Shown: in pieces, positions 6,521-20,944 of the stretch
How positions within the stretch are numbered: the stretch's first letter is position 1
Layout of the letters: the number at the start of each line of letters is the position of its first letter
Notes under the pieces: model-generated
Told to the model about the DNA's origin: nothing
Seen by the model: only the letters and a program-made list of their open reading frames with translations
Databases searched by the model: none
Translations under genes and position numbers: made by a program
Assembly: GCA_964543385.1 (NCBI GenBank)
Contig: CAZIYE010000001.1
Span: 150,001-182,000, forward strand
Length of the DNA stretch: 32,000 nt
Direction: 5' to 3'
Source of the DNA: an uncultured Candidatus Saccharibacteria bacterium
GTDB lineage: Bacteria > Patescibacteriota > UBA1384 > XYA2-FULL-43-10 > 1-14-0-10-43-13

Positions 6521-6560
6521 TTTATAAATAAAAAACAAAAAACTCTCCGAAAGGAGAGTT
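6521..6560 (-). terminator. Intrinsic terminator (AACTCTCC-TTTC-GGAGAGTT plus a U-tract)
   Basis: An 8-bp stem at 6541-6548/6553-6560 is followed on the minus strand by TTTTGTTTTTTATTT. Confidence 0.75.
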
Positions 6561-6583
6561 AAAAAGGCCCATAAAAACACTGA

Positions 6584-6610
6584 AACCCCACCGCGCGATG
6601 CGATGGGGTT
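6584..6610 (-). terminator. GC-rich 11-bp hairpin just downstream of the island-1 gene
   Basis: The minus strand reads AACCCCAUCGC-AUCGC-GCGGUGGGGUU (one G-U pair), followed by TCAGTGTTTTTATG. It sits in tandem with the terminator at 6521-6560. Confidence 0.55.
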
Positions 6611-6652
6611 CAGGAACATTTGCCTCAGGATGAGGCGGGAGGATGCTGCCCC

Positions 6653-7363
6653 TTACGGGGTAGTATCCTCCCAGGAATTCTTCACCTCCCAGCGGACGCC
6701 GGCATGGCGTCCACGAGCGTTGAAGGTCCTCTTCTCGCCGGGCTGGCGGGCGGGACGCGTGTCCCACTCGCCGAACAAGTTGCCCACCAGGGCGGCCACG
6801 TTGGTCCGCAGAACCAGGACCAGAACGACGGCCACGATCAACAACCACCACCAATTGGCGGCCAGCCAGTTAATTACTGCCATGGGATCTCCTGCCGGGG
6901 TTACCGGCGGCGTCGACGTAGTCGGCGCGGTCGTGCCGGGGGTGGCCGGCGGAGTAGTTGCAGGTAGGGATGCAAGCGGCGCAAGGCCGTACTTGTCTTC
7001 GAGCAAGCGAATTACCGCTCCCTCAGTGATATAGCCGCGATCTTGCAACCAAGCATCGACTTTCGCCTGACTTTCCGGCGTACCCCCAAGGGGGTTTGCT
7101 TTCAGATAGGCGATGTCAGACTGGATCTTGGTGATCTGATACTTGATGTCCCGGATCTCACTCTGGACTCGGCGGGTACCTGCACGGTCACCCTGGCATA
7201 TATATTCCCGAAGGATTACTTGCCGTTCAGCGACTTGTTGCTCTTTTGTAGCAATCTGCTGCTGAAGCTGGGGAACCGGGGTACCAGCGTCGGGCCCGAG
7301 TTGAGCGAATGCCGCTACGGTAGCGGCGAGCATGATGGCGATCAGGATGATCGTTTTCTTCAT
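6653..7363 (-). CDS. Island-1 orphan: Sec-secreted coiled-coil protein with a Pro/Thr-rich linker and a C-terminal TM anchor (236 aa)
   Basis: ATG start with GGGAGAAC upstream. Signal peptide MKKTIILIAIMLAATVAAFA followed by QLGP. Heptad-like region QQQIATKEQQVAERQ...IRDIKYQITKIQSDIAYLK. Linker PATTPPATPGTTAPTTSTPPVTPAG. TM helix WWWLLIVAVVLVLVL. Counted lines give 60-73% GC against about 35% for the backbone. Confidence 0.75.
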   Translation of the reverse strand: MKKTIILIAIMLAATVAAFAQLGPDAGTPVPQLQQQIATKEQQVAERQVILREYICQGDRAGTRRVQSEIRDIKYQITKIQSDIAYLKANPLGGTPESQAKVDAWLQDRGYITEGAVIRLLEDKYGLAPLASLPATTPPATPGTTAPTTSTPPVTPAGDPMAVINWLAANWWWLLIVAVVLVLVLRTNVAALVGNLFGEWDTRPARQPGEKRTFNARGRHAGVRWEVKNSWEDTTP

Positions 7364-7581
7364 GGTGTTCTCCCGCTGTATGGTGGCGACCCGCTCGATT
7401 GTGAATTTTTTTATTACCGAGCAAACAAGATAGAAAAGTGTAAATTCAGGCGCTCAAAAGCGCCGTTTAAGCGTAATTTCTACTCTCTTTGCTCAGTAAT
7501 ACTATTTAATTGTTAAGGTACTTTGTGCTCATATTCACCCTTTTAGGGTAAACAAAAGGCGACACTGTTCTGCATAACTCG

Positions 7582-7654
7582 ATAGGCGGAGGGGGAACCT
7601 ATTTCCCTGATAAATCAGGGAAGTTGAGCTATGCAGGACGCTGCCGCCTGCATA
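7582..7654 (-). promoter_or_regulatory. Three adjacent stem-loops within the long leader upstream of the island-1 gene
   Basis: Stem ATAGG/CCTAT at 7582-7602 has minus-strand loop UUCCCCCUCCG. Stem TTCCCTGA/TCAGGGAA at 7603-7622 has loop UUUA. Stem TATGCAGG/CCTGCATA at 7630-7654 has a 9-nt loop. GGCGG at 7586-7590 could alternatively pair with CCGCC at 7643-7647. Confidence 0.5.
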
Positions 7655-7801: not shown

Positions 7802-7840
7802 TAGATATTGATACTTTCTGTGACAATATGCTGGCAATCC

Positions 7841-7865
7841 ATACGGCCGGAGGGGGGGGCCGTAT
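7841..7865 (-). other. GC-rich hairpin with a C-rich loop (ATACGGCC-CCCCCCUCC-GGCCGUAU on the minus strand)
   Basis: An 8-bp perfect stem at 7841-7848/7858-7865 with a 9-nt loop. It is flanked by 13-nt direct repeats at 7824-7836 and 7889-7901. Confidence 0.6.
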
Positions 7866-7984
7866 CTACAATTAAATGCTAGGATTACCAACATGCTGGC
7901 ACAGACTTAATACAAATCAGACTCATAATTTGTTACTATTTATTCCTCCTGAGAATTCCACCTCGCCTACCCTCAGAACATCGC

Positions 7985-10950: not shown

Positions 10951-11295
10951 TTATATCAGTTCACTGCTGACACAGCAGAGGTCGATGACCTCTTGTCCGA
11001 TCTGACGAATAACCGTCGCGTACTCGTCATCGCCGAAATCGGACGAGCCGATCCACTGAATCTGGGCACCGATTGCCTCAGCAATCTTAACCGCCGTGTG
11101 GAAACTGCCAATCAGCTCTTCAGTTGGTGCATTCCGACAAATCGAAGCCGGAACTGACTCCAAGCAAGCTGCCAGAACCTCAAGCGGTAGCATGCGGCTA
11201 CCCAGACTTGACGTGCTTTCGACTCCGTAGATATCGTCATGTAGACGACGACGAAGCACATAAAGCGCATCTTGAAACCCATTAATGGCATCCAT
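10951..11295 (-). CDS. Island-2 orphan: small acidic cytoplasmic protein (114 aa from the preferred ATG)
   Basis: The track ORF begins at a GTG that is part of the RBS TAGGAGGTG. The ATG at 11295 lies 8 nt after GGAGG. No signal peptide. A counted line gives about 53% GC. No family recognised. Confidence 0.6.
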   Translation of the reverse strand: MDAINGFQDALYVLRRRLHDDIYGVESTSSLGSRMLPLEVLAACLESVPASICRNAPTEELIGSFHTAVKIAEAIGAQIQWIGSSDFGDDEYATVIRQIGQEVIDLCCVSSELI

Positions 11296-11315
11296 AAGTG
11301 CCACCTCCTAACATT

Positions 11316-18294: not shown

Positions 18295-18411
18295 TTTTTT
18301 CCTTAATCCTCTAGCTAAAAGCTATCGGCACTTTCATAATTGTTATTACTTTTTTAAATTTAACTCTCTATATATATTAATAGCCATTATGGTTAGCAAT
18401 TGCAATGGACT

Positions 18412-18510
18412 CATCTCCGAAAGTATGAATAAATCATAACTTCGGGATGAGGGGGTGCGCGCCTTTCAACAGGCACCCCGCTCAAGTTAGTTGCCACCGG
18501 GTACGGTGGC
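18412..18510 (-). terminator. Cluster of three hairpins at the 3' end of island 3
   Basis: GCCACCG-UACC-CGGUGGC lies at 18493-18510. GAG-C-GGGGUGC...GCACCCC-CUC lies at 18449-18483. An imperfect stem of about 12 bp, CATC(C)CGAAGT/ACTTTCGGAGATG, lies at 18412-18449. None has a clear U-tract. Confidence 0.45.
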
Positions 18511-18517
18511 GGGCGTC

Positions 18518-19282
18518 CTAATACGGGACGCCAGGTTCGGGAATCGGCCCCGCACCAGGCCAATGCCCACAGCTCTGGCTCGTCCCCCCACAAAACGGGC
18601 AGCGGAATAGCCATAGCAGGCCAAGCCGCCACTCCATCACCGGCTCTTTCTGCCAGAATGGCATCCGGTCCGGGGTGAGTCCCGACTTGGCGAAGCAAAG
18701 CTTTGATATGATCACTGCTTGCTGTTCGCGGGTTGGGAGCGGCTTTTGTGCAGCCACCGTTGGCTTATCGAGACTGATCGCCTCGAGGCACCATTGGTCG
18801 ACAGTGGCAGTTGCCATGACGCCGGTATACGGCAGCTTTTGAGGGCAAATAATCCGGACATACCAGTCAATACGTGTGAGTAACTGCGTAATGATCTGGT
18901 ATGCCAGGTCGACTTCTTCAAACGTCCTGCAGAGGTAGATCGGGGTGTGGATGATGTCCAGTTGGAGCATCAGCACAAGCCCATTCTTCACTGAAGGAGT
19001 CATATGTCGACCCTTCTTTGCCCAATAGCAACGGTAACGCTCGATTTCGGCGTAGTCATACGCCGTTAACGTGCGCTTTTCTGCGACCCGCTGAACGGTA
19101 ACCTTCACCCAATCGCATTGCTGCGAAGAATAGGTTTGTCCATCCGAAGTCCAGGAAGGAACAGTCGGTGCCGGCGTGGTTGCCGACTGAGTGCTTGCTT
19201 GCGGCACTCCCGCGTTATTACCCATCTCGGCCATCACCGGCAAGCCGGCAAGGACGAGAATCAGGGCCATGATCATTTTCAT
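18518..19282 (-). CDS. Island-3 orphan B: Sec-secreted Cys-containing protein (254 aa from the preferred ATG)
   Basis: The ATG at 19282 lies 7 nt after GGAGGTG, which overlaps the upstream gene's TAG stop (TAGGAGGTGTGCAGATG). Signal peptide MKMIMALILVLAGLPVMA followed by EMG. P/T-rich segment TQSATTPAPTVPSW. The track start at 19354 is a TTG inside the upstream gene. Confidence 0.7.
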   Translation of the reverse strand: MKMIMALILVLAGLPVMAEMGNNAGVPQASTQSATTPAPTVPSWTSDGQTYSSQQCDWVKVTVQRVAEKRTLTAYDYAEIERYRCYWAKKGRHMTPSVKNGLVLMLQLDIIHTPIYLCRTFEEVDLAYQIITQLLTRIDWYVRIICPQKLPYTGVMATATVDQWCLEAISLDKPTVAAQKPLPTREQQAVIISKLCFAKSGLTPDRMPFWQKEPVMEWRLGLLWLFRCPFCGGTSQSCGHWPGAGPIPEPGVPY

Positions 19283-19293
19283 CTGCACACCTC

Positions 19294-20586
19294 CTAAAGC
19301 GGCAGGACGATGACGTTTGAAACGCCAGGGCGGTAAGTGATCATCTCTGACCAATTCCGACCATCAGTTGAATATTTCAGATTATATTCATATGACACGA
19401 GGTTTCCATTCACACGCTCACCGATGGCAGCATTGTTTATAGGAATATCCCCAGGAGCATATGGACCGAAGACTCGCCCTTGCGGGTAAGCACGATCATA
19501 CAATCTAATCCACACCTTCTTTGAAGTGCGGAAGCAGTAGTTTCCATGGACCACTTCTGTTTGTTTCTGAGTGGTAACGGAAGACGATATGCCGGGTGCC
19601 GGCGCTTTGAGATACTCGATGACTTGCACCAGGGTTAACTGGTGATTGGCAACGAGTTGCCTTAAACGCTGAATCTCGGCCTCGGTTTTACCCGAGTTCC
19701 GAGCGACGACTTGAATCGCCTCCCAAACCTTCAAGTCAAAAGCTTCACAAGCAGCCACACGGGCTTCAAGATTGGCAATTTGGACAAGAAGACTGGAATC
19801 ATCGTAGGCAGGAACAGAAGTGATGCCTCCACCAGTCAGCCCAGTACCGGTACTACCCATCGCCTTGTCATTGGCAAGTAAGGTCTCGAAGACGAGCCCG
19901 TTACCACCATTGCCAGCGCGACGAAGCAGATCGGTCAAGTACTGAACTGAAGGAGCGGAACAGTTGGCAGGCCAACACTCCGTTTTGAAGCGGAGAGTGT
20001 CGACCATTGCTGACAGGTTAGTTTTTCCTGCCCACTTGATCTTGAAGAGGATCAAGTTTATAGCTTTGTCGTTGCGTTTTCCATCCTGGACCAACGCATA
20101 GAAACGGAAGCAATGCAGATCAGCACCAACAGCTACCTCAAGAGGCATCTCTAGGTACCAGCGCCCGCCAGCGTCCCGTTTGAGAACCAGCACACCCGGA
20201 GTTGTAAACGACCAGGTATTGGTCCTGCGATCATAGCTATACTCGAGCTTTTTCTCTAGCTCGCCTTGTGCAGCGACCATCGCCACCACCGGCATGTCAG
20301 CGAGGACGTTAGGGTATACCTTCATGGTTGCCCCAATCCCCACAGGAAATGTGCCGAGGTACGAGGTCTCTGCCTCGTCCCATTGCCAGGTGACTGCTTG
20401 CGCATAAGTCACCTGCACCTGGACTTTTCCACTGGTAACCTGCTGCGATGCCTGTTCAGTATAGACCGGACCGTCTAGGACGGCACCAGTTGCACCGAAT
20501 GGAGCAGCACTTGCTGGCGTGATTGCCAGCGCGCCAACCATTAAGGTCAGCAATACGAGGCCAATTACGGCCAGCGGGTTACGCAT
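19294..20586 (-). CDS. Island-3 orphan A: Sec-secreted protein with a beta-rich N-terminal part, a central coiled coil and a C-terminal beta-rich domain (430 aa)
   Basis: The ATG at 20586 is preceded by AAAGAGGAGGAACGCAG. Signal peptide MRNPLAVIGLVLLTLMVGALAITPASA followed by APFG. Heptad-like LLVQIANLEARVAACEAFDLKVWEAIQ...IQRLRQLVANHQLTLVQVIEYLK. Counted lines give 52-58% GC. Confidence 0.75.
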   Translation of the reverse strand: MRNPLAVIGLVLLTLMVGALAITPASAAPFGATGAVLDGPVYTEQASQQVTSGKVQVQVTYAQAVTWQWDEAETSYLGTFPVGIGATMKVYPNVLADMPVVAMVAAQGELEKKLEYSYDRRTNTWSFTTPGVLVLKRDAGGRWYLEMPLEVAVGADLHCFRFYALVQDGKRNDKAINLILFKIKWAGKTNLSAMVDTLRFKTECWPANCSAPSVQYLTDLLRRAGNGGNGLVFETLLANDKAMGSTGTGLTGGGITSVPAYDDSSLLVQIANLEARVAACEAFDLKVWEAIQVVARNSGKTEAEIQRLRQLVANHQLTLVQVIEYLKAPAPGISSSVTTQKQTEVVHGNYCFRTSKKVWIRLYDRAYPQGRVFGPYAPGDIPINNAAIGERVNGNLVSYEYNLKYSTDGRNWSEMITYRPGVSNVIVLPL

Positions 20587-20612
20587 CTGCGTTCCTCCTC
20601 TTTCATTTTTGG

Positions 20613-20643
20613 GGTACCTCTCGCCACCAGGCGAGGAGGTACC
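20613..20643 (-). promoter_or_regulatory. GC-rich hairpin in the 5' UTR, about 25 nt upstream of the island-3 RBS
   Basis: The minus strand reads GGUACCUCCUCGCC-UGGU-GGCGAGAGGUACC (13 bp with one bulge), followed by CCAAAAAUGAAAGAGGAGGAAC. Confidence 0.55.
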
Positions 20644-20944
20644 TGATTGCAAGAAAATTGAGACGATTGGATTGCTCCGATTTCGTCTGCAAGGAAGTAT
20701 TATTTATTCGAGATCAATTGATAGCTTTTATCTGCCTACTTCTAGCTATCACTCGAAGAATAAATTCTTCTATTGCAGCTGAAATTGCTTCTAAACATTT
20801 TCACTGATTTTTATTCTATTTGATTTTTAATTGCCATTTTTTAGCAATTCATAAATTATCTATAGTTGAAATAATTTATTTTTGTGAGATTTTATATATT
20901 TTACAATTTTTAAATATACTATTGTGACTTCAATCGCCTTTTGC

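Follow-up and report, generated by a model that had tools for sequence, protein, structure and literature searches.

P0001 is a minus-strand gene (7363..6653; 236 amino acids (aa)) in a stretch of 32,000 nucleotides (nt), in the following called the window, which covers positions 150,001 to 182,000 of contig CAZIYE010000001.1 from an uncultured Candidatus Saccharibacteria bacterium; all genes, RNAs, and signals given with window coordinates below are likewise encoded on the minus strand. The gene is located downstream of two order-specific RNAs with an anti-Shine-Dalgarno (anti-SD)-like CCCCCUCC loop and upstream of a cluster encoding a glycine-zipper protein, a DUF5663 protein, and type IV coupling protein (T4CP)-like ATPases. 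Its high GC content does not stem from foreign ancestry; it is bounded by the coding sequence (CDS) and maintained through saturated synonymous divergence. We consider it probable that P0001 belongs to a vertically inherited, positionally fixed, and self-contained transcription unit of a Berkelbacteria-like order of Patescibacteria, in which a stabilized, structured mRNA would give rise to a fast-evolving, membrane-anchored surface fibril.

GC content and position of P0001 across the order

The host genome (903 kb in four contigs, 98.7% complete) has a GC content of 38.3%, and its closest named relatives by means of tgt are metagenome-assembled genomes labelled Candidatus Berkelbacteria or Patescibacteria group. 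P0001, which starts with ATG and carries the SD sequence GGGAG 7 nt 5' of it, has a GC content of 0.596-0.599 and a GC content at third codon positions (GC3) of 0.66-0.67, compared to a GC3 of ~0.30 in neighbouring genes. This GC3 ranks third among 805 open reading frames (ORFs) of the genome (mean 0.345, standard deviation 0.066). A preliminary description of the region had named it the most GC-rich segment, which we can confirm for the whole genome: the four 500-nt intervals with the highest GC content all fall on P0001 (maximum 0.628), and the maximum over 300 nt, 0.66, is reached at 6651-6999. The values of 60-73% given there for single lines of sequence apply to the 3' two-thirds but not overall, as 60-nt lines vary between 0.43 and 0.73.

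Codon choice contributes strongly to this composition. Proline is encoded by CCG or CCC in 95% of cases (27% genome-wide) and arginine by CGC or CGG in 67% (14% genome-wide). With the codon preferences of the genome, the amino acids of P0001 would result in a GC content of 0.475 and a GC3 of 0.32, compared to the observed 0.599 and 0.66, and about half of the GC excess is pure codon choice. The codon-choice part peaks in the region encoding the transmembrane (TM) helix and the tail of the protein (GC3 0.80-0.83). P0001 thus shows the atypical base composition and codon usage that characterize acquired islands. Both GC boundaries are spanned with 100% identity by three independent assemblies (two Logan runs and one metagenome from JGI); the segment is therefore contiguous with its flanks, and the reservation expressed beforehand that it might not be is removed.

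The surroundings of P0001 follow a fixed order: rplL and tgt are followed by the unit itself, comprising promoters, RNAs, leader, gene, and terminators, and then by the glycine-zipper/DUF5663/T4CP-like cluster. The locus L009, which harbors the nearest relative, P0002 (41% identity to P0001), comprises L7/L12, tgt, genes for proteins of 433 aa and 97 aa, an 823-nt spacer, P0002, a 936-aa protein, DUF5663, a 374-aa protein, and a T4CP-like ATPase. Both promoters and both terminators are present there at equivalent places, with identical promoter hexamers. Two tandem terminators after the gene had been noticed before, and a terminator scan found them at 6611..6583 and 6560..6541. Terminator 1 (6573..6611) consists of a GC-rich 12-bp stem and a T-run and is nearly identical in L009; terminator 2 (6531..6560) consists of an 8-bp stem and a T-run and is conserved in L009. 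Because both are conserved, both belong to the unit; the idea of a cassette terminator placed beside a native one does not hold. The same unit of RNA and GC-rich secreted-protein gene was found at the same site in L009, in the genomes G023, G002, and G009, in about 20 other genera, and on groundwater contigs. In G023 (L004), which represents a different family of the order, a 280-aa homolog of similar architecture lies directly upstream of the glycine-zipper homolog. The gene of a groundwater relative, P0005, follows L1, L10, L12, and tgt, and P0003 is located before DUF5663. A comparison with relatives had been proposed as a check of whether the flanking genes are adjacent there; instead, the unit sits between them in L009, G023, and other genera, and its recurrence in this slot across the order contradicts the initial view of a single-gene cassette that splits two operons.

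The GC richness recurs together with the unit. For 24 non-redundant loci, the median GC3 of the ORF following the RNA(s) is 0.63, and its GC3 exceeds that of tgt in 13 of 14 same-contig pairs, a comparison to which no statistical test was applied, the genomes being related. Almost all of these ORFs begin with a signal-like hydrophobic stretch, 24-60% of their residues are Pro, Ala, Thr, Gly, or Gln, and about half of them end in a hydrophobic helix. Recognizable orthologs have GC3 values of 0.57-0.79, except for a cut-off fragment in genome G001 (0.49). Averaged over 19 loci, the GC content rises from 0.41-0.47 in the 300 nt upstream of the start codon to 0.54-0.63 inside the CDS and then falls to 0.53 in the terminator hairpin and to 0.36 further downstream. 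For each gene of the block, the synonymous divergence dS (Nei-Gojobori method, NG86) between the window and L009 either reaches at least 1.5 or is undefined, and four-fold sites show nearly the identity expected from composition alone. Both orthologs have a GC3 of 0.67-0.69, compared to 0.30-0.47 in the flanks. Over such a saturated synonymous distance a foreign composition would have decayed; the high GC content is therefore not a relic.

We further compared the minimum folding energy of the native CDS with that of synonymous-codon shuffles of the same sequence. P0001 reached a z-score of -4.4, and the genes at the orthologous position in eight other genomes reached -6.8, -1.6, -6.9, -6.9, -3.6, -10.2, -4.2, and -4.4, with values of -0.4 to -1.8 for neighbouring genes, which served as controls. 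Dinucleotide shuffles resulted in z-scores of -3.2 for P0001 and -8.1 for P0002. The mean for 30 ordinary genes of the host genome was -0.73 (standard deviation 1.3). The fold-stability signal is real for this class of loci and modest for P0001, and it supports, without proving, selection on the transcript. Likewise, a GC step bounded by the CDS is more readily explained by selection at the transcript level than by regional biased gene conversion. Two translational causes were considered. Selection for C-ending codons as a general cause was rejected because L7/L12 has a GC3 of 0.23. A shortage of tRNAs that would act as a brake on translation was not supported either, as the 43 tRNAs include G34 or C34 species for every favoured GC-ending codon family except CGG.

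In genome G009 (C9:131264-134200; L007, L020, L043), two tandem modules are arranged as RNA, GC-rich secreted-protein gene, RNA, and P0001-family gene, which suggests that duplication of the entire unit is possible. The assembly of genome G001 (contigs C26 and C77; L003, L015), which is of the same genus as the host, breaks on both sides of the P0001 homolog: one contig stops within the first RNA, and the second is cut off in the region encoding the C-terminal part of the homolog. These breaks hint at strain-level heterogeneity.

RNAs, promoters, and leader upstream of P0001

An alignment of the spacers upstream of the gene revealed blocks that are nearly identical between species, although the P0001 orthologs are only 41% identical; no other part of the locus is as conserved as this spacer. 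The blocks correspond to two copies of a structured RNA of ~110 nt, each located 3' of a consensus promoter. Promoter P1 (7985..8013; TTGACA-17-TACAAT, TG-extended) agrees with the consensus at 11 of 12 positions, is identical in L009, and is conserved in the alignment A1 and at locus L133. It precedes RNA copy A (7806..7908), a three-way junction with the loop CCCCCCUCC on the stem ACGGCC/GGCCGU, which matches our covariance model R1 with 46.3 bits (E = 3.1e-8), has a fold z-score of -4.2, and has a core that is nearly identical in L009. Promoter P2 (7773..7801; TTGACA-17-TATAAT; 12 of 12 positions), again identical in L009, precedes RNA copy B (7545..7653), a three-way junction with the invariant loop UCCCCCUCC (R1: 91.5 bits, E = 1.5e-19), whose outer stem and U-run double as an intrinsic terminator. 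Each copy is composed of an outer stem, a variable hairpin, and a hairpin with a covarying stem and the invariant (U/C)CCCCCUCC loop. When 24 copies were aligned with MAFFT without structural information, 96% of the cells were paired, with compensatory changes in 21 of 28 pairs, whereas slid alignments used as controls resulted in 27-45% pairing.

The distribution of this RNA family is narrow. BLAST detected it in 28 of 44 genomes of the order; with covariance model R1, matches were obtained in 25 of the 32 genomes sampled from the order, compared to one of 118 elsewhere in the class. In the genomes searched, strong matches cluster on one contig within ~2 kb; a few genomes contain weaker BLAST matches to copy A on other contigs. 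A comparison to Rfam gave no match at gathering thresholds and chance-level matches only at relaxed E-values, and neither GC-rich surface genes nor non-coding RNAs of these bacteria were encountered in literature searches. The RNA family with the CCCCCUCC loop is undescribed and restricted to one order.

Between copy B and the gene lies a conserved leader (7417..7520), which was found at ~15 loci of the order and comprises a UUAACAA box (~7509-7518) and a long hairpin with the base GAGCAA...UUGCUC (~7417-7496); it is part of a 405-nt leader fold with a z-score of -6.5. A consensus scan detected no sigma-70-like promoter in the stretch from copy B to the start codon, and P0001 may therefore be reached through read-through of the copy B terminator. 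The UUAACAA box and hairpin between this terminator and the start codon do not resemble a sigma-70 promoter. As a further observation, many genes of the host genome (G000) have extended SDs of the GGAGGGG type, which pair far better with the RNA loop than the SD of P0001. These genes are candidate trans targets; alternatively, the loop might mimic the anti-SD of the organism.

Two known types of regulatory arrangement can be compared. C-rich-loop base-pairing small RNAs of Gram-positive bacteria include RsaE/RoxS and LhrC. Like these, the upstream RNAs have a C-rich, anti-SD-like loop on a stable stem, an own promoter, and an intrinsic terminator. Unlike these, they lack an Rfam match, form a three-way junction, are restricted to one order, have their strong matches at one locus, and do not have the adjacent gene as top predicted target. 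Genes for S-layer and other abundant surface proteins, such as slpA of Lactobacillus, have tandem promoters and long, structured 5' leaders that stabilize the mRNA. The P0001 unit shares with them two tandem consensus promoters, a leader of ~400 nt with stable hairpins, a monocistronic organization, and strong terminators. In contrast to the slpA type, the leader of P0001 contains a discrete RNA family in two copies, of which one has its own terminator, and the CDS is compositionally shifted.

Architecture and relatives of the P0001 protein

P0001 is predicted to consist of signal peptide, head, spacer, TM anchor, and tail. The putative signal peptide (7363-7301) comprises MKK, a 17-residue hydrophobic stretch (Kyte-Doolittle 2.9), and a likely cleavage site between AFA and QL. 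It is followed by predicted helices with a coiled coil (7279-7097), the conserved motif ANPLGG...WLQ.xGY.T (7096-6989), a Pro/Thr linker (6988-6884), a predicted TM helix (6865-6809; LAANWWWLLIVAVVLVLVL with the core WWWLLIVAVVLVLVL; residues 167-185, Kyte-Doolittle 2.5, directly followed by R186), and a cytoplasmic tail of 50 residues with a predicted beta-hairpin (6808-6656). The AlphaFold2 (AF2) model places helices at residues 2-19, 29-57, 60-89, and 171-201, two short helices within 96-125, a disordered Pro/Thr stretch at 126-159, and the beta-hairpin at 212-231; the predicted local distance difference test (pLDDT) score is 75-85 for the helices 29-57 and 60-89. Hydrophobicity scores and AF2 helices agree with a type I (N-out, C-in) single-pass protein with a cleavable signal peptide.

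Much of this had been anticipated. The computed features agree with the 236-aa product, its cleavable signal peptide, Pro/Thr spacer, and single TM helix as initially described, and every one of them backs the topology of a surface-displayed stalk in the form of a type I anchored protein. For the heptad-like segment of about 60 aa, AF2 predicts the helices 29-57 and 60-89, but canonical 3-4 spacing is limited to V66, I70, I73, I77, I80, I84, and L87, and residues 32-54 are weaker. The family profile matches designed antiparallel coiled coils in the PDB (E = 4.9e-5). The tail is net positive (about +3), as proposed, though only mildly basic, with nine Lys/Arg and six Asp/Glu residues. No match to P0001 was found in Pfam, NCBIfam, or PHROGs. 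Its relatives are likewise devoid of a significant Pfam match, and P0008 has the precomputed accession PF27998.

An exhaustive HMMER search of 1.84 billion representative proteins resulted in 13 matches, i.e., the query, seven recognizable family members, and five weak matches, of which four are to giant repeat proteins and the fifth spans Pro/Thr linker and TM helix. The motif ANPLGGT.ES.AKV..WLQ.NGY.T is common to the family members, and among the closest of them the tail motif F.x.RGR..GVRW is the best-conserved part. All six members or loci with readable context (P0004, P0009, and P0011 left out) are found at the tgt/DUF5663 locus on Patescibacteria-like contigs; among the recognizable homologs with readable context, there is neither a member in another setting nor a GC-rich donor lineage. 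Most neighbours in L009 are 64-92% identical to the corresponding window genes, and only a 351-aa protein (37%) diverges more than P0001, which is therefore one of the fastest-evolving genes of the block. No second copy of any part of the region was found in the genome, and there is thus no template/variable repeat pair of the diversity-generating retroelement type; a reverse transcriptase was not searched for.

Some further features of the family and its position are noteworthy. The WLQ.xGY.T motif weakly matches a PTNVSAFTNDAGYIT repeat of the giant proteins P0006 and P0007, which end in Fib_succ_major, and this likeness may point to a common short fibre-forming unit. In P0008, P0009, and P0004, the signal h-region ends with a Cys (LSAC, IATC, and ALTC) that resembles a lipobox and is missing from P0001 and P0002. 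In some genera, collagen-like Gly-X-Y sequences with GPQ runs (L025, L026) replace the coiled coil at the P0001 position; judged by sequence, the slot is occupied by different kinds of putative fibrous ectodomain.

M and M-like proteins and Scl proteins of streptococci are composed of a signal peptide, a fast-evolving N-terminal fibril, a Pro-rich wall spacer, and a C-terminal hydrophobic segment with a charged tail. They are exposed on the surface of a cell without outer membrane, and the LPXTG motif defines these families. P0001 resembles them in its predicted signal peptide, fast-evolving fibrillar head, Pro-rich spacer, hydrophobic segment with charged tail, and putative exposure on a cell that likewise lacks an outer membrane, and the collagen-like GPQ repeats found at its locus in other genera are reminiscent of Scl, P0001 itself being of the predicted coiled-coil kind. 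However, P0001 is much shorter (236 aa), shares no sequence similarity, and has a long, conserved cytoplasmic tail with a predicted beta-hairpin. Neither LPXTG nor a related sortase motif was found in P0001, P0002, or P0008, and the sequence preceding the TM helix of P0001 is PPVTPAGDPMAVINW. Because the LPXTG motif is absent, P0001 is not a member of the M or Scl families; by analogy, it might at most work like their fibrils.

Explanations for the GC excess and the role of the unit

We infer that P0001 functions as a displayed surface fibril. The protein would be exported by the Sec pathway, followed by cleavage of the signal peptide, and the C-terminal TM helix would retain it at the membrane. 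The Pro/Thr spacer would span the envelope and cross the wall, so that the N-terminal helical or coiled-coil head with ANPLGG...WLQ.xGY.T is displayed outside, while the conserved 50-residue tail would remain in the cytoplasm and could contact the adjacent membrane/ATPase cluster. Fast divergence would fit an exposed protein. As for the cause of the high GC content, we infer that selection on the mRNA itself is the likeliest one: a GC-rich, base-paired CDS together with a long structured leader, tandem promoters, and tandem terminators may result in a stable, strongly expressed message and an abundant surface protein. Tentatively, we extend this to an order-wide scheme, in which transcript selection, and not gene transfer, would create and hold a GC-rich, base-paired surface gene in AT-rich, genome-reduced bacteria despite saturated divergence. 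The gene would be coupled to a leader-forming pair of anti-SD-loop RNAs, which in turn could set message stability or translation of the main surface fibril at the RNA level.

Several observations weigh against selection on the transcript and against the proposed fibril. Shuffling in blocks of 40 codons reduced the z-score of P0001 to -2.5, with a range of -1.35 (a single ortholog) to -6.0 for the genes at the orthologous position and of -1.0 to -1.6 for controls. The fold excess is not specific to P0001, as it is shared by further GC-rich ORFs of the genome (mean z = -3.95), which may include RNA genes. In at least one genus (G021; L030, L044), the gene with this architecture is not GC-rich (GC3 0.40). 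A targeting of the P0001 ribosome-binding site by the RNA loop was not supported; this region is not a preferred partner (rank 151 of 842 in pairing), and it is thus by position only that the RNAs are linked to the gene. Regarding the protein, the AF2 model is weak overall (pLDDT 59, 5 sequences), and no fold match was obtained, since a Foldseek search against the PDB resulted in nothing better than E = 0.2 and in generic helical hairpins only.

Different origins of the GC excess can be considered. A recent horizontal acquisition, with P0001 as a moron-like single-gene cassette inserted with its own terminator between two native operons, would account for the sharp GC boundaries and for a codon usage that resembles a high-GC organism. 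Like phage morons, the unit is self-contained (promoter, SD, gene, and terminator), encodes an envelope protein, and differs in GC content and codon usage from its AT-rich genome. We nonetheless regard this origin as highly improbable: the unit occupies the same site across the order and its promoters, both terminators, and upstream RNAs are conserved. GC3 stays high though synonymous sites are saturated, flanking direct repeats longer than expected by chance are absent, and all recognizable homologs with readable context reside at the tgt/DUF5663 locus on contigs of the candidate phyla radiation type. Moreover, the window contains no tRNA or tmRNA, and no integrase domain was detected among ten neighbouring proteins scanned. 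A by-product of recombination is a less remote, though still unlikely, source. Diversifying selection would favour frequent swaps of alleles between strains, with the highly conserved RNA genes and terminators serving as homology arms, and GC-biased gene conversion would raise GC3 in the swapped part. Fast evolution of P0001 next to RNA cores that are nearly identical between species is in line with this, as are the wide variation of proteins at this position among genera (coiled-coil, collagen-like, and PA-rich) and the assembly breaks on both sides of the gene in G001, which would be expected for strain heterogeneity. However, the GC step tracks the CDS, whereas the conserved leader, expected to lie within many conversion tracts, stays at 0.41-0.47, and the excess of base-pairing over synonymous shuffles is left unexplained.

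The remaining alternatives concern the product. P0001 might be part of the downstream machine, which comprises a 947-aa glycine-zipper membrane protein, DUF5663, and two T4CP/VirB4-like ATPases, for instance as an outward fibre or adhesin with the tail as docking site; this would be compatible with the fibril favoured above and adds a specific partner. In all loci whose sequence extended sufficiently far downstream, which represent several families, the gene is followed by a homolog of either the 947-aa protein or DUF5663, and the strong conservation of the tail motif in the closest members is unexpected for a mere anchor. We consider such a partnership doubtful, however, as the protein at this position is devoid of tail or TM helix in many genera. 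Two terminators and ~210 nt lie between gene and cluster, and P0001 is therefore a transcription unit apart from it. Furthermore, no similarity to VirB, Trb, or Prg components of type IV secretion systems was detected by means of Pfam, NCBIfam, PHROG, PDB sequence, or Foldseek comparisons, so that the tie to the T4CP-like ATPases is gene proximity alone. Finally, the ORF could be incidental and the actual product of the region a structured non-coding RNA or an antisense gene, in agreement with a coding region that folds more stably than its shuffles and with long antisense ORFs of 143 and 157 aa. This is extremely improbable: a dN/dS of ~0.29 between P0001 and its L009 ortholog indicates coding constraint, signal peptide, TM helix, and motifs are kept in the sense frame across genera, the periodicity of GC content over codon positions (GC1 > GC2 < GC3) matches the sense frame, and Rfam gave no match. 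An antisense gene was rejected, as the antisense ORFs are not conserved in L009; the earlier proviso that the minus-strand ORF might be unconserved while another frame is conserved is thereby settled in favour of the sense frame.

Sharp GC islands are routinely read as horizontal transfer, an inference that a direct comparison of relatives shows to be wrong at this locus. The island predates the order in which it is found, and its high GC3 is held against the AT pressure of the genome. It thereby offers a natural case for asking what maintains local composition in a tiny genome, i.e., selection on mRNA structure and stability or biased conversion linked to recombination. The locus also represents a conserved expression module of Patescibacteria, in which two promoters, a pair of RNAs, and a leader hairpin precede a variable surface gene that is followed by a double terminator. 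Its cargo would be the type of exposed, rapidly changing protein through which these episymbionts, most of them uncultured, are expected to make contact with hosts or phages.

Regarding other features, a hairpin with 16-nt arms (6637..6672; inverted repeat I2, 88% complementary) encloses the stop codon of P0001 directly 5' of both terminators and is not obviously conserved in L009. The window contains other GC-rich genes at 18411-20652 and 10951-11304, with a GC3 of 0.52-0.63. Copies of the RNA motif are absent beside them, and compared with synonymous shuffles, their coding RNAs have a higher fold stability (z about -5 to -6). Both ORFs of the 18.4-20.6 kb stretch have signal-like hydrophobic N-terminal segments.

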